A DNA stretch of 64,000 nt, taken from contig OZ336878.1 of assembly GCA_965287045.1 (NCBI GenBank), positions 68,324,001 to 68,388,000 of the forward strand, read 5' to 3'. Below, piece after piece: positions 7,400 through 58,348 of the stretch. The position numbers and the translations under genes are program-made. The notes beneath the pieces were generated by a model, which was not told the origin of the DNA, searched no databases, and saw only the letters and a program-made list of their open reading frames with translations. Each line of letters opens with the position of its first letter. Within the stretch, counting starts at the first letter, position 1. This stretch comes from Carcharhinus amblyrhynchos (Eukaryota).

Positions 7400-8323
7400 A
7401 AGATTGGTGGAAAGGCAAATTGTGCGGAGGGTGTGGAGAGTCTATAGAAGGATCTAGATAGGCTGGGCGAATGGGCCAGGAACTGGCAAATGGAATTTAA
7501 TGTTGGCAAGAGCGAGGTGGTCCACTTTGGTAGGAATAATGGTAGGAAGGATTATTACTTACGTGGAGAAAAACTGCAGCAGGCGACGGTGCAGAGGGAC
7601 CTCGGGGTCCTTGTGCATGAGTCGCAAAAACCCAGCTTGCAGGTGCAGCAGGTGGTCAGGAAGGCGAATGGGATGCTGGCCTTCATAGCGAGGGGGATTG
7701 AATATAAAAGTAGGGAGGTCTTGCTGCGGCTATATAGGGCATTGGTGAGGCCGCAGCTGCAGTACTGTGTGCAGTTTTGGGCACCGTACTTACGCAAGGA
7801 TATTTCGGCCTTGGAGGGAGTGCAGAGGAGGTTTACTAGGCTGATGCCAGAGTTGAGGGGGTTGAGCTATGAGGAGAGGCTGAATAAACTAGGCTTGTAC
7901 TCGTTAGAGTTTAGAAGAATGAGGGGAGATCTCATTGAGACGTATAAGATGATGAATGGGATGGATAGGATAGAGGTGGAGAGACTCTTCCCGCTCAGAA
8001 AGGACAGTAGGACTAGGGGGCACAGCCTCAAGATAAAGGGGGGGTGGTTTAGAACGGAGTTGAGGAAGAACTTCTTCACTCAAAGGGTGGTGAATCTCTG
8101 GAATTCTCTGCCCGTTGAAGTGGTGGAGGCTACCTCGCTAAATATTTTTAAGACGCAGGTTGATGGGTTTTTGATAAGAAAGGGGATTAAGGGTTATGGG
8201 GAGAGGGCGGGAATGTGGAACTGAACCACGACAGATCAGCCATGATCTTATTGAATGGCGGGGCAGGCTCGAAGGGCCAGATGGCCTACTCCTGCTCCTA
8301 TTTCTTATGTTCTTATGTTCTTA
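7400..8323 (+). mobile_element. Young 5'-truncated CR1 LINE (ORF2 C-terminal 244 aa open)
   Basis: ORF 7490-8224 is a CR1 ORF2 C-terminus. 3' tail (ttcttatg)n. Near-identical to 30634-31917, 44920-45888 and 57806-58348. Confidence 0.95.
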
Positions 8324-30479: not shown

Positions 30480-33400
30480 AGTACTAGATGGGTCAGGCAA
30501 GAGCAGGTCAGAGAACAAGGGAAGTCTAGATTAAACTGCATTTATTTCAATGCAAGAGACCTGACAGGCAAAGTAAATGAACTCAGGGTATGGATGGGTA
30601 CATGAGAGACTGGGATACTATAGCTATTAGTTAAACATAAGAACATAAGAACATAAGAAATAGGAGCAGGAGTAGGCCATCTAGCCCTTTGAGCCTGCCC
30701 CGCCATTCAATAAGATCATGGCTGATCTGTCGCTGCTCAGTTCCACTTTCCCGCTTTCTCCCCATAACCCTTAATCCCCTCTCTTATCAAAAACCCATCA
30801 ACCCGCGTCTTAAAAATATTTAGCGAGGCAGCCTCCACCACTTCAACGGGCAGAGAATTCCAGAGATTCACCACCCTTTGAGTGAAGAAGTTCCTCCTCA
30901 ACTCCGTTCTAAACCGCCCCCCTTTTATCTTGAGGCTGTGCCCCCTAGTCCTACTGTCTTTTTTGAGCGGGAAGAGTCTCTCCACCTCTATCTTATCCAA
31001 CCCATTCATCATCTTATACGTCTCAATGAGATCTCCCCTCATTCTTCTAAACTCTAACGAGTACAAGCCTAGTTTATTCAGCCTCTCCTCATAGCTCAAC
31101 CCCCTCAACTCCGGTATCAGCCTAGTAAACCTCCTCTGCACTCCCTCCAAGGCCAAAATATCTTTGCGCAGGTGCGGCGCCCAAAACTGCACACAGTACT
31201 CCAGCTGCGGCCTCACCAATGCCCTATACAGCTGCAGCAAGACCTCCCTACTTTTATATTCAATCCCCCTCGCTATGAAGGCCAGCATCCCATTTGCCTT
31301 CCTGACCACCTGCTGCACCTGCAAGCTGGGTTTTTGCGACTCATGCACAAGGACCCCGAGGTCCCTCTGCACCATTGCCTGCTGCAGTTTTTCGCCCCGT
31401 AAGTAATAGTCCTTCCTACCATTTTTCCTACCAAAGTGGACCACCTCACACTTGCCAACATTAAATTCCATTTGCCATTTCCTGGCCCATTCGCCCAGCC
31501 TATCTAGATCCTTCTGCAGACTCTCCACACCCTCCGCACAATTTGCCGTTCCCCCAATCTTGGTGTCATCAGCAAATTTCGACACCCTACACTCGGTTCC
31601 CTCCTCCAGATCATCTATATAAATGGTAAAAAGCTGAGGCCCCAGCACCGACCCCTGGGGTACTCCACTAGTCACCATCCGCCAATCCGAATAGCACCCG
31701 TTGACCCCCACTCTCTGCCTCCAATTTGACAACCAATCCTCTATCCACGCTAACACCCTACCCCCAACTCCATGTCCCTCGACCTTCTGCAATAACCTCG
31801 TGAGGTACTTTGTCAAACGCCTTCTGAAAATCTAGAAAGACCACATCCACCGGCTCTCCTCTATTCACCGCCCTAGACACATCCTCATAGAACTCCAGTA
31901 AATTTGTCAGACACGACTAAGGGAGGGACAGGATGGCAGCTCAATGTTCCAGGGGACAGCTGCTATAAGAAAGATAGAACAGGAGGTAAGAGAGAAGGGG
32001 AGTTGCATATTTGATTAGGGAAAACATCACAGCAGTACTGAGAAGGGATATTTCTGAGGGTTTGCCCACTCAATCTATATGGGTAGAACTGAGAAAATAA
32101 GAAGGGGAAGATCATTGTGATAGGATTGTACTATATGCCCCCAAATAGTCAGTGGGACATTGAGGAGCAAATATGTAAGGAGATTACAGATAGCTCCAAA
32201 GAAAATAGGGTGGTAATAGTAGGGACTGACCGGGACAGGCATAGTATTAGGGGCTTGGATGAAGAGAAATTTATTGAGAATATTCAGAAGGAATTTCTCA
32301 TTCAGTTTGCGGATGACCTGACTAGAAAGGGGGCAAAACTTGACCTTCTCTTGGGAAATAAGGAAGGGTAGGTGACAGAAGTGTTAGTGAGGGAACACTT
32401 TGAGACCAATGACCAAAATTCCATTAGTTTTAAGATAGCTATGGAGAATGATAGGTTTGGCCCAACAGTTAAAATTCTAAATTATGGCAAGGCCAATTTT
32501 GATATTAGACAGGAACTTTCAAAAGTTGATTGGAGGAGTCTGTTGGCAGGTAAGGGAAGTCTGATAAGTGGGAGGATTTCAAAAGTGTGTTAACCAGGGT
32601 TCAGAGTAATCACATTCCTTTTAGAGTGAAGGGTAAGACTGGTAGAAGTAGGTAACGCTGGATGACTCATGATATTGTTGCCCTGGTGAAAAAGAAGAAG
32701 AGGGCATATGACATGCATAGGCAGTTGGGATCAAGTGGATCCCTTGAAGAGTATAGAGGGTGTCAGAGTAGAGTTAAGAGAGAAATCAGGAGGGCAGAAA
32801 GGGGACATGAGGTTGTTTTGGCAGATAAAGCAAAGGAGAATCCAAAGAGCTTCCACAAATACATAAAGGGGAAAAGAGTAGGGAAAGAATAAGGCCTCTT
32901 CAGGATCAACAAAGTCATTTATATGCAGATCCATAAGAGATGGGTGAGATCCTAAATGAGTATTTCTCGTCAGTATTTACTGTTGAGAAAGGCATGGGTG
33001 CTAGGGAATTTGGGGAAATATATAGTGATGTCCTGTGAAGAATACAGAAAAGGTGGTGCTGAAAGTTAAAAGCATATCAAGGTAGATAAACCCCTGGGTC
33101 CTAACGAAGTATATCCCAGGATGTTGGGAAGCTAGGGAAAAAATTGTGGATCCCCTGGCAGAAATATTTGCATCATCGACAGCCATAGGTGAGGTGCCTG
33201 AAGATTGGAGGGTGGCAAATGTTGTGTCTTTGTTTAAGAAGGGCTGCAGGGAAAAGCCTGGGAACTTTGGGCGGTCAGCCTGTAGTGGGTAAGTTGTTAG
33301 AAGATATTCTGAGAAACAGGATCTACAGGCATTTGGAGAAGTAAGGACTGATTAGGGACAGTCAGTATAGGTTTGTCAGTAGAAAATCATGTCTCACAAA

Positions 33401-37485: not shown

Positions 37486-37727
37486 ATAGTGAGAAACAAG
37501 AAACCCGAGGAACCTTTGAAAAACACTGGTTCAGTCTCAACATTGTGCCTAATTCTCAACATTGCACCTCAGAAAAGATTTGAAGGCTTCAGAAAGTGTG
37601 CAGGAAAGATTTACAAGAATGGTTCCAAGAATAAGGGGCCTCAGTTATGTTGATAGATTGGAGAAGCTAGGATCTCCTTAAAGAAGAGAAGATTGATACA
37701 AGTGTGTACATTTTTTTTGGGGGGGGG

Positions 37728-38691
37728 TGAATTTTAAACTATAATTGTTCAAGTCAAGTCTGGACTCAGATTATTTTACTTGTTCATAGGAGGCAAGCAA
37801 CAGCAGTCTGGTGAAGTAAAACAGTAGTTCGTAACAAAGCAGAACATAGAGCTCAAACCAGACTTCCTCTCCATCACTTCTGTAAACTTGAGGCTTGCCT
37901 TGGTCACCAAAATCTACTACCTTTTCCAAATCACAACTCACAGCCTGACCAACAGTATCTCTGACCTTTCATTTACCTAGCTGATGCAAGATTAGGTTGG
38001 CTCAGTGATGTATGTATGCTGCATGGTCACTTACTGAATACTCTGAACTCATTGTCTTGGATGGGGCTTAATTGGTGTGACTTCCTGGACACTTATTTTC
38101 ATGTGTTCTAATTAAATTAGTCACTTGCCAACGACTGTGTATTGTTCATTACGTCGGTCACTTATCAAGGGCTGTCTGCTATTAGAGGCTTCCTGCTAGG
38201 TCATGTGATTGTTGTGTTTGGAATGAGCTACCTTAGAAACAAATTGCTTTAAGCAAAGTAATAGAAGAAATAGAGGAGATTGTCCAGTAGGTATTACTTA
38301 AAAATCTATAGCATATATAAAATATGTGCATAGCAACGATCAGTGTTTTATAAAGGTGAGGTTGTGAAATATCCTTTATACATTCAAATAATGCAGTCAT
38401 GCATTGCAATTATCAGTGTAGTGACAGGATGTTTCTCATTCAAACTTGAATGATTGCAAGTCTCGCATTGAGATAGCAGTATCCTACAATTAACACTGTC
38501 TGCTTTAAAAATAACATACTCACGAAGGTTCTAAATTTTAATGAATTAATATGTCTTGATTGTGATTAATCTAATTATTAAACAATACTCTTCCTCAATA
38601 AATAATATGCATTTGATGCCTCATATAATAATATTGTCATGGCCCCCTCTCCTAACTTGTCCCATGTCTCAATTCAAACCAGGGTGTTACA
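37728..38691 (-). mobile_element. Candidate 3' LTR of the retrovirus-like element
   Basis: On the minus strand a purine tract ggaagggtagaaa (38704-38692) runs directly into TGTAACACCC. Candidate CA end at 37729-37728. Lies downstream of the integrase remnant. No second LTR to confirm the boundaries. Confidence 0.5.
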
Positions 38692-38924
38692 TTTCTACCC
38701 TTCCAGAAGGTCTTATGAGGAAAGGTTGAGGGAGCTGGGGCTTTTCTCTTTGGAGCAGAGGAGGATGAGAGGCGGCTTAATAGAGGTTTATAAGATGATG
38801 AGAGGGATTGATAGAGTGGACGTGCAGAGACTATTTCCTCGGGTGGATGTAGCTGTTACTAGGGGGTATAACTATAAGGTTCCTGGTGAGAGATATAGGA
38901 GGGATGTCTGAGGTAGATTCTTCA

Positions 38925-39498
38925 AGATGTGGGTATGCCGGCGTTGGACTGGCGTAAACACAGTAAAAAGTCTGACAACACCAGGTTTTAGTCCAACCTA
39001 TTTATTTTGTTCCCTTCCTGTTGGCGAACACTTCAGTGGTCACGGGCATTCAGCCTCTGACCTTTGGGTAAGCATTCTCCAAGGCGGCCTTCACGACACA
39101 CAACAGCGCAGAGTCGCTGAACAGAGACTGATAGCCAAGTTCCGCACACATGAGGACGGTCTCAATAGGGATCTTGGGTTCATGTCGCACTATCTGTAAC
39201 CCCCGTGACTTGCCTGGGTTTGCAAAACCTCACTCACTATACTGTCTGGAGACAATACACATCTCTTTAAACTGTGATCAGTGCTCCTTCCACTCACATT
39301 ATCAGCGACTTCAGGTCTTGAACAGCAGGTTAGGTGTAAGGATTCACATTCTAATCAGTAATCTCTAAACTGTCTGTGCTTTATATGCTCTGTCTGAGGC
39401 TAGAACTCTCCATTCACCTGACAAAGGGGCTAACCCCGAAAGCTTGTGAGTATATTATCAAATAAATAGGTTGGACCTGGTGTTGTCAGACTTTTTAC
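38925..39498 (+). mobile_element. Penelope-like element fragment: GIY-YIG C-terminus, hammerhead remnant, inverted termini, 11-bp TSD
   Basis: TSD TAGATTCTTCA at 38914-38924 and 39499-39509. Peptide SLPVGEHFSGHGH..RRVAEQRLIAKFRTHEDGLNRDLGF. Inverted repeat 38962-39007 vs 39460-39499. Confidence 0.88.
39418..39446 (+). ncRNA. Degenerate minimal hammerhead ribozyme motif
   Basis: CTGACAA-A-GGGG-CTAA-CCCC-GAAA-GCTT: core boxes flanking a perfect stem II. The CTGANGA box has G8 changed to A. Confidence 0.65.
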
Positions 39499-40140
39499 TA
39501 GATTCTTCACTCAGAGAGTGGTTGGGATGTGGAATAGACTGTCTGCTGTGATAGTGGAGTTGAACATTTTAGAAACTTTCAAGCAGTCATTGGATAGGCA
39601 CACCAGAATTATAGGGAGTGGGATTGCTTGATCTTGGGATTGGACATAGCTCAGCACAACACTGAGGGCCAAAGGGCCTGTACTGTGCTATAATGTTCTG
39701 TTTCTATGTAATCGCATTTGGCTTTTAAACCTTCCCATTTCCAGACTCATAGTTTTGCATCTACATCATCGAAATGGGATGGATCCAATTTGCAATGCTC
39801 GCAGGAAAGGTTATCAGGGATAGATGGGAATGAAAAACTAGAAACACAATCCGATCAGCCATAAATGGCCTACTTCTGCTCCTATTCTGTGTGTCCATAA
39901 ACATTCACATCACAATAGTCTATTGGAATGGAAAGTTTATTTCTGTGGTCTCATTTGCAGTGGCTATCCATATACGACCTGATTCCTAAGCAGAAAGGCT
40001 TTCTTTTGGGATGACATTGATGATACTAGTAACTGCATTAGTCCAAGCATCCTTCTGAATGATGTGAACTGAAAGGAAAGAAAAAATGTAGAGTACCTAT
40101 TCTTGCGTAACTTTAACTGATTGATATCGTACCACTTCCT

Positions 40141-40261
40141 GGGTGGAATTTTACCGTCCCACCCACCATGGGAATTGTATCGGGCAGAACCATGCAAAGG
40201 TCCATTGAGCTCGGGTGGGATTTTCTGGTCTTGGGGTGAGCGCGGCCAGAAAATCCTGCCC
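40141..40261. mobile_element. Small Harbinger-type MITE inside the integrase C-terminus
   Basis: TIRs gggtggaatttt / aaaatcctgccc. Homologous to 22627-22762 and 37391-37485. Confidence 0.8.
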
Positions 40262-40889
40262 CCCGTCTTTATCCTTTGACTTCCTGTTTCTCTGGAATTG
40301 TATCAAAACCACTGGATTCAATTTATCTACTGTGGAAAATTATTCTTTCCATTTGGGTTAGAACATGTTTTCATTTTTAGCATAATTGAGTACCATAACC
40401 ATATCCCATATCTGAAATTCAAAAGGTCTTACTTTCTTATCGAAGAATTTTTTGACCTGCTCCTTTCACTTTCCCAAGTTCATCACAACATAGTGGAATA
40501 TACAGTTTAGGTAAACCACCATCTGTTCTAGCCACTTGGAACTGCAAGGTTCCTGTGTCATTAGACCAACTGGAGTCAGCGACAGGTAGCTTGAAGTTTT
40601 CGTGAGTCTCCCTGTCATGGCCTGAAATAGGGACATCCCTGTCATTCTTTAAGGTGTGGATCTTATTTTCATGAGGCACAAAGTCAGCATGTTAGCCCAT
40701 TGAGGGGGGATGATCTGTATATAACTTAACAATGTTTTTATCTCCTCTCGCAACAATACCAGAGGACTGAGGGTGGTGGGTAATGTGCAATTTGTATGTG
40801 ATTGCTAACGATTTCTGCAGGTTGTCAAAAGAACTTCCCTGTGAAATGTGATCCTTGGGCACTGTACATCAGTGAACATTGTTTTATTC

Positions 40890-41198
40890 AATCATGTTAT
40901 GTGGGTGTTGCTGGCTGGGCCAGCATTTGTTGCCCATTTCAAAAATCAACCCCATTGCTGTAGATCTGGAGTTATATGTAGGCCAGACCAGATGAGGACA
41001 GGCAGATTTCCTCCCTAAAAGGCATTAGTTTTTTATAAGAATTGACAATGGTCTCATTAGACTTTATATTCCAGATTTTTTATTGGATTCAAATTTCACC
41101 ATCTGCCATGATGGGATTTGAACCCAGGGCTTGAGAGCATTTCCATGGGTCTCTGGATTACTACTCCAGTGACAATACCGTTAGACTACGCCTCTCCC
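40890..41198 (-). mobile_element. tRNA-derived SINE (27618-type) inserted in the integrase core
   Basis: Reverse-complement similarity to 27618-27977. Confidence 0.75.
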
Positions 41199-42111
41199 GT
41201 GTAATAGCAGTCTCACCTTATTCAATAAGATTTTAGCTGTGTTAAGGGTGGTATTCAACCTGTAGGGGAAAACTTCAATCCGTTTTGTGAACTATTCAAT
41301 CACAACCAAGTTATAGGTGTAATTACCTCGGATGGCTGGCAGGGGCCCAATAAAGTTAATCTGCAGATGTGTCCAAAGCCCATCTGGTGGTGGAGCATTG
41401 TGTAAATGAACCTTATTATTGTTTGGCAAGGAGTTCTGTTGGAGGCATGACAGATACTATGCCACACACTGGTTTACTGCATTCTGCATATTAGTCTGTA
41501 TTTGTAATTTCCTGGTAAGTAAGCTCAGCAGAATAATGACCACTGATAAGATGGGAGTACAGCACCCACACAATCTGTCTGCTGATTGGTGCATCAGCAA
41601 CTGAGTACCCGAATCGTGAGCCTTAGACATGTTCATGTTTTAGGCCTAAGGGTTTGGCTGGGGAAGAGTATTACCTTGATTATGCGATTTGATAGAGATG
41701 GCATGTGATGTGTACTGCTGCTGGAAGGATCCCAGGTCTATGGGACCACAGACATGTTGTGTTGACTCAGGAAGGCAATGGTTGGTACATTCTGGTCCCT
41801 GTTCTGACAAGCGGTCTCTTGAACTCTCTCTTCAAAGTTCTTTTCAACCTTCTCTTATCATACTTGTTGGCTAGTGTCAGTATTTAGCCTTAGATGGATT
41901 TACCATCCACTTTGGCCTGCATTTACAAACAACCCATCTCCAAGAAGATTCAATTCTAATGAGCCAAGGGCCGTTACCAGCCTTACACTGCCCACAGGTT
42001 AAACATCAACCAGAAGGATTTAGGCCCTAAAAATTTGTCAGAGAAAGGTCTCTGTACATCATACTGCTGGCATCCACCAGGTGAGTGAACAGTCAGCACT
42101 GGGCTCTTCCC

Positions 42112-42435
42112 TAGTATTTAATAGAGATGTTCATTATCTTGAGGAGTCTAGACAGGGTAGTTAAAGAGAAACTATTGCCATTGATGGAATAGTCAAGAAG
42201 CAGAGGGCAGAGAATTAAAGTCATTGACAAAAGGATCAAAGGTGACATGAGGAACAACATTTTACACACTGAATAGTTGAGATCTCGAACGCATTGCCCG
42301 AGACTCAATCGTGGCTTTCAAAAGGGAATTGACTAAGCTTCCAAAGAGAGAAAGGGGAAAGGTGAGGAAATGGGTCATGCTAAATTGCTCTTGCAAAGTC
42401 AGCATGATTAGGCCAAATGGCCGCCTTCTATGTCT
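42112..42435 (+). mobile_element. CR1 3' fragment, apparently continuing the CR1 broken at ~37695
   Basis: gaagagaagattga (to ~37696) joined to tttaatagagatgttc (from ~42117) reads as contiguous CR1 RRL..DLIEMF. Confidence 0.65.
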
Positions 42436-44919: not shown

Positions 44920-45888
44920 ATGATCTGGAGGAGGGAACCGAGTGTAGGGTGTCGAAATTTGCTGATGACACCAAGATTGGAGGAAAGGCAAATTGTGCGG
45001 AGGGTGTGGAGAGTCTACAGAAGGATCTAGATAGGCTGGGCGAATGGGCCAGGAAATGGCAAATGGAATTTAATGTTGGCAAGTGCGAGGTGGTCCACTT
45101 TGGTAGGAATAATGGTAGGAAGGATTATCACTTACGTGGCGAAAAACTGCAGCAGGCGACGGTGCAGAGGGACTTCGGGGTCCTTGTGCATGAGTCGCAA
45201 AAACCCAGCTTGCAGGTGCAGCAGGTGGTCAGGAAGGCAAATGGGATGCTGGCCTTCATAGCGAGGGGGATTGAATATAAAAGTGGGGAGGTCTTGCTGC
45301 GGCTGTATAGGGCATTGGTGAGGCTACAGCTGGAGTACTGTGTGCAGTTTTGGGCGCCGTACTTACACAAGGATATTTTGGCCTTGGAGGGAGTGCAGAG
45401 GAGGTTTACTAGGCTGATGCCAGAGTTAAGGGGGTTGAGCTATGAGGAGAGGCTGAATAAACTAGGCTTGTACTCGTTAGAGTTTAGAAGAATGAGGGGA
45501 GATCTCATTGAGACGTATAAGATGATGAATGGGATGGATAGGATAGAGGTGGAGAGACTCTTCCCGCTCAGAAAGGATAATTGGACTAGGGGGCACAGCC
45601 TCAAGATAAAGGGAGGGCGGTTTAGAACGGAGTTGAGGAGGAACTTCTTCACTCAAAGGGTGGTGAATCTCTGGAATTCTCTGCCCGTTGAAGTGGTGGA
45701 GGCTACCTCGCTAAATATTTTTAAGACGCGGGTTGATGGGTTTTTGATAAGAGAGGGGATTAAGGGTTATGGGGAGAGGGCGGGAATGTGGAACTGAGCC
45801 ACAACAGATCAGCCATGATCTTATTGAATGGCGGGGCAGGCTCGAAGGGCTGGATGGCCTACTCCTGCTCCTATTTCTTATGTTCTTA
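44920..45888 (+). mobile_element. Young CR1 LINE (282-aa open ORF)
   Basis: ORF 44949-45797 runs from SKFADDTK to the stop. Same family as 7400-8323. Confidence 0.95.
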
Positions 45889-46329
45889 TATTATGTTATG
45901 AATAAAAAGGCTGCAAGCAGGATTATGGCTGACTTTAGTAGAAGAGTCAGCTGGAGAAGATGGGAGAGTTTGCTAGTGTTGCAAGTTACTTTAATAATTA
46001 TTTTGAGCCTTCAGTTGGAAATATTGTCAGAGAAGGTGATTTAGAGATAGATGGAAAATGAATGTTCTGTACCCAGTACTGGACCCTGAAATCAGTACCT
46101 ATCAGCATTATACATTCCAGCGGATGATCCTGCTCCAGTGAGGAGAAGGGGGAGGGAAGCTAACCAAGGACAAGATGCCCTGTGGTCCAGTAAGTTGTGG
46201 AACCTGCTGCTGAACAAGAGCCTACAGAGGAGAGACAACAGCAGCAAGTAGACAGAAACTAGCCTGCCAATGGGTATACCCTCAAAAGATGACACACTTC
46301 CAAGTGTCGGGGTGCCAGTGTCTGAGAAT

Positions 46330-57805: not shown

Positions 57806-58348
57806 TTTGGGCGCCGTACTTATGCAAGGATATTTTGGCCTTGGAGGGAGTGCAGAGGAGGTTTACTAGGCTGATGCCGGAATTGAGGGGGTTGAGCTAT
57901 GAGGAGAGGCTGAATAAACTAGGCTTGTACTCGTTAGAGTTTAGAAGAATGAGGGGAGATCTCATTGAGACGTATAAGATGATGAATGGGATGGATAGGA
58001 TAGAGGTGGAGAGACCCTTCCTGCTCAGAAAGGACAGTAGGACTAGGGGGCACAGCCTCAAGATAAAAGGGGGGGGGGGGTTTAGAACGGAGTTGAGGAA
58101 GAACTTCTTCACTCAAAGGGTGGTGAATCTCTGGAATTCTCTGCCCGTTGAAGTGGTGGAGGCTGCCTCGCTAAATATTTTTAAGACGCGGGTTGATGGG
58201 TTTTTGATAAGCGAGAGGATTAAGGGTTATGGGGAGAGGGCGGGAATGTGGAACTGAGCCACGACAGATCAGCCATGATCTTATTGAATAGCGGGGCAGG
58301 CTCGAAGGGCTAGATGGCCTACTCCTGCTCCTATTCCTTATGTTCTTA
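57806..58348 (+). mobile_element. Young CR1 LINE, short 5'-truncated copy
   Basis: ORF 57835-58257 is nearly identical to the other three young copies. Confidence 0.95.

Follow-up and report, generated by a model that had tools for sequence, protein, structure and literature searches.

Within the window, which is the whole 64,000-nt stretch of DNA analysed, a block of retroviral sequence on the minus strand interrupts an older element. The left half of this target (37542-37696, plus strand; 13 matches at 64-67%) is, as we take it from its reading frame, the 3′ region of an old CR1-type LINE, and the right half lies at 42116-42334 on the same strand (starting at 42116/42117; five matches at 60-66%). 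In one intact CR1 copy the two halves are colinear and 8 nt apart (one colinear pair), in agreement with the proposal of an earlier note on this DNA that the block splits a single CR1 at about 37696 and about 42117.

Between the CR1 halves, a decayed integrase is preserved on the minus strand in collinear pieces at 41744-41214, 40875-40277 and, for the C-terminus, 40136-40098, the order in which it had been read from the letters before. The first part (41214-41744) comprises the RNase H-integrase linker, a decayed zinc finger and the first half of the integrase core; it matches the Xenopus tropicalis Pol P0010 at 31% over amino acids 768-959 and the next genomic copy with an E value of 5.6e-17. 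The second part (40098-40889, minus strand), comprising the decayed second half of the core and the C-terminal domain, is 40.5% identical to P0010 over 148 aa and, over the aligned parts, 58-64% identical in DNA to sibling copies, eight of which group with the window in the tree described below. The pieces contain seven stops plus frameshifts, with decay also at the zinc-finger and catalytic positions. P0010 is the best match of the integrase (summed score of 234 bits), while a Pfam search with a 94-aa piece of it returned no family. Further 5′, the stretch 41745-42115 (minus strand) is of a length that would fit RNase H, for which no significant match was found there.

Two multi-copy inserts interrupt the integrase, as had been suspected of a SINE at 40890-41198 and a MITE at 40141-40261. 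The former is a short repeat that spans 40871-41197 (no strand assigned; 41 matches, the best at about 70%) and is presumably a SINE; the latter, in the second part of the integrase, has 22 matches. A younger CR1 3′ end (38708-39712, plus strand; 93% to its best copy) lies at the expected place of most of env and has in turn been interrupted by a second repeat (38925-39498), with 16 colinear pairs spanning this inner insert; no target duplication was found around it.

Directly behind the integrase is a predicted env splice acceptor (40069-40086, minus strand), in which 15 of 15 pyrimidines precede CAG. No other site of this form exists on either strand of the 64 kb, and a pyrimidine tract with AG is found at the equivalent place in five of the eight sequences compared. 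The strong 3′ splice site claimed for 40086-40069 is thus upheld, at a position common to sibling copies. The sequence that follows (39713-40068, minus strand) is likely the first part of env, as its position and a short Cys motif (judged by eye) resemble those of siblings, with no significant alignment; searches of 40068-39715 gave no significant protein or DNA match. The ATG at 40050, which had been taken to open env with MLGLMQLLVSS, is present, but its frame stops after 37 codons and has no significant match, and 39806-39899 is a host-repeat fragment; as an env start it is not supported. Sibling copies carry env, most of which is gone from the block, as the earlier note had it.

Beyond the place of env, a PPT-like purine tract (38692-38704, minus strand; 12 of 13 purines) stands immediately ahead of TGT. 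The PPT proposed at 38691 was correct in so far as the tract abuts TGT, but because 24 similar purine+TGT sites occur in the window, the tract by itself argues only weakly for a PPT. The TGT opens a low-copy LTR-like repeat of TG...CA form (37761-38691, ~930 bp, minus strand), with homologues of 64-72% identity at four other loci (C3:92.53M, C15:31.98M, C20:31.88M and C5:58.35M). Of the LTR previously set at 37728-38691, the old TG...CA repeat stood, but its distal end, common to the C3 and C20 copies, falls at ~37761, about 33 nt earlier, and a pair was never found: at the four other loci, the repeat is unpaired and has no pol or env of the window's family adjacent to it. The LTR-like profile matched no sibling locus among 112 stretches of 10 kb, and the repeat bears no resemblance to the sequence downstream of an intact env at C10:83.04 Mb described below. 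Two neighbouring signals that might have lent support were rejected: the env beside the C3 copy is part of a different multi-copy family, which has a 680-bp LTR of its own, and a weak integrase match at a distance of 19 kb from the C5 copy most resembles a Gypsy row.

The repeat is likely the 3′ LTR of the provirus, given that it lies on the correct strand and in the correct place, begins with TG after the purine tract, shares its CA end with two copies and is of an age (64-72%) resembling that of the pol copies. A different old LTR or DNA-element family that adjoins the block by chance would account for the lack of pairing, for the absence of pol or env of the window's family within 15-20 kb of the four other copies and for the foreign env at C3; we regard this as unlikely, though by no means negligible.

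The 5′ end of the block poses a second question, as the cut is sharp, falls at most 8 nt from the CR1 target and shows no target duplication; such a cut is not expected from normal integration plus random deletion. Instead of a trimmed provirus, the block might be a 5′-truncated retrocopy of a read-through proviral RNA that was pasted by a LINE into the old CR1. The abrupt 5′ end fits this origin, as do the gap of just 8 nt between the CR1 halves and the segment that separates the LTR-like repeat from the CR1 (37697-37760, 64 nt, minus strand), which is C9-A8-rich at its end, so that an A8 run would mark an RNA end 64 nt beyond the LTR. On the other hand, a target-site duplication was not found at the block, the A-run is short with 14 nt more behind it, and the CR1 split is backed by one colinear pair only. 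The retrocopy is an improbable but serious alternative, and the block is treated below as the trimmed remnant of a provirus.

The placement of this provirus was determined from integrase (IN) and reverse transcriptase (RT) trees, which contained no foamy virus, no certain ERV-L and a single, long-branched class III row. In the IN tree (49 rows, three references having been dropped as too short, and without a host NYNRIN row), the window grouped with eight genomic copies at 97/92 and together with P0010 at 100/100, apart from 12 Gypsy rows (100/100). An env-bearing copy at C8:67.05M stayed outside this tree, having a match of 75 aa only. Because the window is without RT, the RT placement rests on siblings: two sibling copies joined P0010 at 97/96 within the canonical retroviruses (100/99), with the lokiretroviruses outside. 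Gypsy rows formed one side at 99-100 in four of four RT and IN trees, so that the nesting within Gypsy that would have contradicted the earlier note was not seen, and its view of a retrovirus lineage rather than an ordinary Gypsy is borne out. In the IN tree submitted to AU tests, the lokiretroviruses were separate (99/96), but neither the family with the lokiretroviruses (p=0.10) nor the family beside Gypsy (p=0.23) was rejected. A position as sister to SnRV itself was rejected for both IN (p=0.011) and RT (p=0.043), while for RT a wider group with SnRV was tolerated (p=0.175); the SnRV row, P0015, was identified by motif identity with the row in the supplement of PMC7947760. Moreover, three sibling loci (L051, L080 and L094) match the tether plus RNase H parts of P0010, revealing a dual RNase H. 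For the window's family, a strict first look found no open pol, a count to be read as a floor, and a scan of viral contigs for RT found nothing. A family with an open pol of ~1458 aa, considered as a lokiretrovirus, is class I (epsilon-like). The window block is likely a class III / clade Huo-grade ERV.

The nature of the lost envelope can be approached through sibling loci, 2 of 12 of which carry env remnants behind IN, and through a related young family, of which 8 of 10 loci examined have paired LTRs of ~790 bp. The latter encodes gag (with a CCHC zinc knuckle), a pol that follows in frame after a stop and includes a dual RNase H, and a third ORF. The model of this third ORF (pLDDT 64.9) matches the RSV and paramyxovirus F proteins at E 1.5e-10, with low Foldseek TM-scores (0.31/0.47), and the F-like Env also matched the Env of WDSV/WEHV1. 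The Env of the window's family would therefore be F-type by homology to this modelled Env, and behind the acceptor, where the earlier note advised looking for env or fusion-protein folds, siblings have env remnants and the young family has an ORF with an F-like model. An exhaustive search recovered 58 homologues of the young family's Env; a word-index search for them recovered none, and PDB sequence searches with Env were blank or noise.

Foamy viruses are not known to have a CCHC knuckle in Gag, and they make Pol from its own mRNA. A foamy-like ERV of clade Tu has two points in its favour, in that the young family's Pol finds its best solved-structure matches in foamy Pol (E 7.7e-70, versus 4.7e-62 for MLV) and an F-like Env occurs in foamy viruses too (PMC11468914). 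However, the young family's CCHC Gag and its pol in frame behind a stop are unlike those of foamy viruses, and its RT motifs are, by eye, nearer the SnRV row than the fish FLERV rows in the PMC7947760 supplement, which makes this origin very unlikely.

A lokiretrovirus, which would be the first in a cartilaginous fish, is suggested by the NYNRIN-like integrase (P0010 shares 38-41% identity with loki IN versus 28% with SnRV IN, with the IN AU test at p=0.10), by the dual RNase H and the F-type Env of relatives, both loki features (PMC7947760), and by six chondrichthyan genome rows without a star in Table S2 of that paper, yet it is extremely improbable, as a loki placement of RT was rejected (AU p=0.0046), sibling RTs read LPQG and lack the CPFGY motif, whereas the loki rows in our trees carry the CPFGY/NSPAEF motif of published loki sequences, and F-like Env extends to foamy viruses and WDSV/WEHV1. 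Of the lineages suggested earlier, NYNRIN-like thus proved apt for the integrase, as NYNRIN/loki-like via its closest relative P0010, and membership of the lokiretroviruses did not. Nor is the grade, a little-studied branch of aquatic retroviruses, new to cartilaginous fishes, in which such lineages had been supposed to be poorly sampled: the SnRV-related CmiERV lineage I of the elephant shark (PMC4422223) and clade Huo, present in all major vertebrate lineages (PMC6001957), were already published, and the window element is a new copy of this known grade.

The family of the window is probably also the source of a solitary, intact env at C10:83.04 Mb. This ORF of 754 aa is open, has a signal peptide, furin site, fusion peptide and TM, and is most like the env remnants of the window's family (40-49% identical, E 5.6e-10 and 9e-10, versus 25% for the young family's env). 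No pol match was found within 50 kb, and the next DNA matches are fragments of 64-80%. It is 86% identical, gap-free, to GCC29952.1 of the bamboo shark C. punctatum, and sequences from organisms C and D likewise align to it without gaps, making three such sequences in all; in the latter two organisms, DNA contigs extend into its 3′ flank. Among the 40 of 149 differences listed, 24 of 33 changes in the ORF are silent, with 10.4 expected (0 of 5000 simulations), indicating constraint. Run X15 did not cover the gene, one 266-nt contig of it came from a run whose RNA nature is a guess, and a single-sequence model of the Env N-terminus was too poor (pLDDT 38.9). An Atlas search gave one chordate cluster at 0.83, noted as a lead only.

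Judged from its sequence, the C10 env is likely a captured host gene, with a putative F-type fold. A fuller proposal, of a shark/frog lineage that combines a canonical RT, a loki/NYNRIN-like integrase and an F-type Env and whose env was captured in sharks with chiPu_0008396 as the bamboo-shark orthologue, is tentative, standing somewhat short of an even chance. Wang and Han, in 2020, reportedly counted 177 co-option events. In the literature searched, nothing described the capture of an F-type env in sharks, and Wang and Han 2020 or the supplement of PMC12813294 may already list the gene; as 371 C. punctatum env ORFs are given there by coordinate only, that supplement may contain the C10 orthologue.

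Taken together, the block is best read, with a probability of roughly 0.8, as the dead 3′ half of an old class III / clade Huo-grade provirus that has lost most of its env, with the C10 env as a likely capture. Gag-Pol was likely once made from genomic RNA, and the F-type envelope likely from a spliced mRNA that used the acceptor behind the integrase. Once fixed in the germ line, the provirus would have lost its 5′ half and some 1.9 kb of env (an estimate from sibling env length), the latter likely with insertion of the younger CR1. The block appears to have taken in at least four further repeats and to retain no function, while one env, likely of the same lineage, would have stayed intact at C10:83.04 Mb, probably kept by the host. 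The insertion itself may be shared: word shares of the window stretch are 0.37-0.56 in seven runs of organisms A-C, and orthology there rests on these shares because the reads are unaligned to the stretch; no RNA runs were listed for the window.

The window element is an ordinary dead ERV fragment of known grade, which adds one more case of F-type envelopes across canonical aquatic retroviruses; such envelopes are not a loki speciality. The lead of interest is the intact C10 env, a candidate whose role in cell fusion or in blocking antiviral receptors could be tested directly in sharks, which include egg-laying, yolk-sac and placental species. If true, the F-type retroviral fold would have a host-kept example here, and cartilaginous fishes a syncytin-like capture.

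Among known systems, SnRV-related and clade Huo ERVs (PMC4422223, PMC6001957, PMC8922424) share with the window's family an LPQG-type canonical RT with SnRV-like motifs, dual RNase H, a predicted spliced-env layout and occurrence in cartilaginous fishes. They differ in that the family is not sister to SnRV (AU p of 0.011 for IN and 0.043 for RT) and that its IN is far nearer loki/NYNRIN than SnRV IN, a comparison that leaves CmiERV-I sequences aside. Closest are the amphibian and coelacanth NYNRIN-like Pols, foremost X. tropicalis UniRef A0A803JYW4 (P0010), which is sister in both trees (IN 100/100, RT 97/96) and 44% identical over 298 IN columns; the frog Pol is open whereas the shark copies are all dead, and the database names of these Pols give no retroviral label. 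Lokiretroviruses (PMC7947760, PMC9040795) resemble the family in the NYNRIN-like IN, the tether plus RNase H, the F-type Env with an RXKR site and the predicted acceptor behind IN, but the family's RT is canonical, with no CPFGY. Finally, like the captured env of syncytins, percomORF and the Sebastes env clades (PMC12813294), the C10 gene is solitary, intact and constrained; unlike them, it would carry, by homology to a modelled Env, an F-type rather than a gamma-type fold, and it resides in a cartilaginous fish.

On the minus strand of the block at about 37728..42110, six-frame reading recovered the pieces of an integrase (IN) in order, with the linker and zinc finger at 41744-41214, the core at 40875-40277 and the C-terminus at 40136-40098, in agreement with the earlier note. 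The printed pieces carry seven stops and several frameshifts, the catalytic positions are decayed and the IN is interrupted by two multi-copy repeats. The strong 3′ splice site proposed at 40086-40069 was likewise confirmed, being the sole site with 15 of 15 pyrimidines plus CAG on both strands of the 64-kb window. By eye, five of the eight sequences printed show a tract of pyrimidines and then AG behind the IN end (or, for the intact env of this genome at C10, ahead of its ATG), and the window at 40140-40080 was matched by a profile built from five further copies (E 1e-6; 0 of 60 shuffles). Past the acceptor, where an env start had been thought possible, neither env N-termini nor sibling copies gave a significant match and part of the sequence is host repeat, so this proposal was not borne out. 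The 3′ end of a younger CR1 (38708-39712; 93% to its best copy, and itself split by another repeat) is placed between these remains and a purine tract of 13 nt directly before TGT at 38691.

The halves of an older CR1 flank the whole block, and in one intact CR1 copy a gap of 8 nt separates them, consistent with the claimed split of a single CR1; no target duplication was found around the block in this element. Four young CR1-type copies (7400-8323, 30638-31614, 44920-45892 and 57806-58348; mutual identity 95-97%) are present in both orientations elsewhere in the window. In established retroviral biology, genomic RNA is translated into Gag-Pol and a singly spliced mRNA into Env, and the layout suggests that the exogenous ancestor would have followed this scheme. 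In the window copy the 5′ half and the greater part of env have been lost, and at least four repeats have inserted into it. The block could instead have arrived as a 5′-truncated retrocopy, for which the 8-nt gap and an A-run speak; this route is judged less likely than whole integration followed by trimming. As 37-56% of the words of the block are present in unaligned reads of seven sequencing runs of three other organisms (A-C), the insertion is suggested to predate the split of these organisms.

The repeat at 37761-38691 has four homologues (64-72% identity), two of which share a distal end ...CA(G) that stands 33 nt inside the LTR end at 37728 put forward earlier. No pol or env of the old family (the window element and its siblings) was found within 15-20 kb of the four homologues, and a profile search of 112 10-kb stretches found no copies at sibling loci; 37728-38691 did not emerge as paired LTRs. 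An env beside the homologue on C3 was rejected as support, as it belongs to another family. The repeat resembles an LTR, putatively from a family that survives chiefly as solo copies. The family of the C3 env, a third ERV family (L024:1638-3333; C3:92.53M), has a 680-bp LTR with 43 matches at 74-87%, its own copy included; its env remnant is 30% like an env cluster from cyprinids.

With the first IN piece as query, the best non-self matches (150 of 856 candidates scored) were 40-46% identical and represent a related young family, of which the window is not a member. The second IN half, in DNA and protein searches, recovered 12 old loci with 58-64% identity to the window where aligned. No open pol of the old family was found in the genome search (a floor), and its nearest database relative is the X. 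tropicalis Pol P0010. One sibling (L096:8690-8850; C1:74.92M) carries, past the IN end, an inverted duplicate of that end.

The young family, of class III grade (L026-L033, L042-L043; C6:64.54M, C1:112.67M, C41:5.75M, C45:1.76M, C15:34.57M), has paired LTRs of about 790 bp in 8 of the 10 loci fetched (78-100% identical; 96-100% within the copies named here), a CCHC Gag, then a stop and an in-frame pol that includes tether and RNase H, and a third ORF. Of four copies checked, two show a clear 4-bp duplication, and primer-binding sites vary among copies, presumably being tRNA-Asn- and tRNA-Arg-like. Its F-type Env has a signal peptide, RSKR site, fusion peptide, heptads and TM; the Env model (37 sequences, pLDDT 64.9) matches the F proteins of RSV and paramyxoviruses (E 1.5e-10, low TM-scores), and its matches in a set of viral models were the Envs of WEHV1, WDSV and feline foamy virus. 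An Ig-like N-terminal domain seems present in F-type Envs of this group (P0135, P0103, P0104), from a weak V-set match in P0135 (E 0.045) and the UniRef name of P0103. Open pol copies are numerous in two further families, of class I (epsilon/gamma-like; L161-L165; C22:44.36M, C4:56.52M, C96:0.40M), with LTRs 99.9% identical in one copy. Shark RefSeq/UniRef gene models P0063, P0093, P0112 and P0127, which fuse ERV pol/env pieces to host genes (LPC symporter, fbxo15, Niban 1, a GPCR-like piece), are likely annotation chimeras.

Env remnants are kept in 2 of the 12 sibling loci and match the bamboo-shark protein GCC29952.1 (C. punctatum chiPu_0008396), which has one intact counterpart in this genome (L140:1456-3720; G000:C10:83042969-83045233, plus strand; 754 aa, F-type; 86% identity, no gaps). 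The closest named homologues point to a shark as the host. This C10 env shares 40-49% identity with the sibling remnants versus 25% with the Env of the young family. A predicted acceptor directly precedes its ATG, no pol match lies within 50 kb, and the rest of the genome holds only decayed fragments (64-80%). Contigs of organisms C and D span the ORF without gaps; of the 149 difference rows 40 were shown, and among the 33 that fall inside the ORF, 24 changes are silent where 10.4 would be expected (0 of 5000 simulations). The 5′ part of the ORF is also covered by a 266-nt contig whose source run is guessed to be RNA. A captured env would be expected to look like this, and the interest of the find comes mostly from this candidate gene. 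Five decayed pieces of C10-type env have no pol nearby (L173, L176, L179, L182, L185; C3:122.44M, C10:31.94M, C13:33.09M, C1:5.80M, C18:46.62M). In two of them the sequence downstream of the 3′ end of the C10 env is present as well (61-65%), and the five may have arisen as retrocopies of the C10 env mRNA or be the remains of proviruses that kept env alone.

In the IN tree (49 rows, three references dropped), the window and eight copies grouped at 97/92 and P0010 joined at 100/100, while 12 Gypsy rows were separate at 100/100, in keeping with the earlier view that this is no ordinary Gypsy. The 30-row RT tree put two sibling copies together with P0010 (97/96) within canonical retroviruses (100/99) and five lokiretrovirus rows outside; uniting the family with the latter was rejected (p=0.0046), and a 54-row quick tree gave the same placement. 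The lokiretrovirus rows bear the motif of published sequences, and one row bears that of snakehead retrovirus. On IN alone, the lokiretrovirus placement was not rejected (p=0.10) and that with snakehead retrovirus was (p=0.011); therefore ‘NYNRIN-like integrase' is apt. Lokiretrovirus membership falls on the RT. A wider amphibian, coelacanth and shark group with snakehead retrovirus was tolerated (p=0.175). Class III / clade Huo grade is a fair label for the old family in these trees, which held no foamy virus, and the window element is a genuine dead ERV fragment, though an ordinary one of known kind.

The NYNRIN-like IN is in line with the IN shuffling described in PMC7947760. F-type Env is recorded for lokiretroviruses (PMC7947760, PMC13524379) and foamy viruses (PMC11468914), and the available portion of bioRxiv 2021.11.23.469661 treats gamma-type Env only. 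Class III / clade Huo-type ERVs are known from elephant shark (PMC4422223) and, according to PMC6001957 and PMC8922424, from all major vertebrate lineages.
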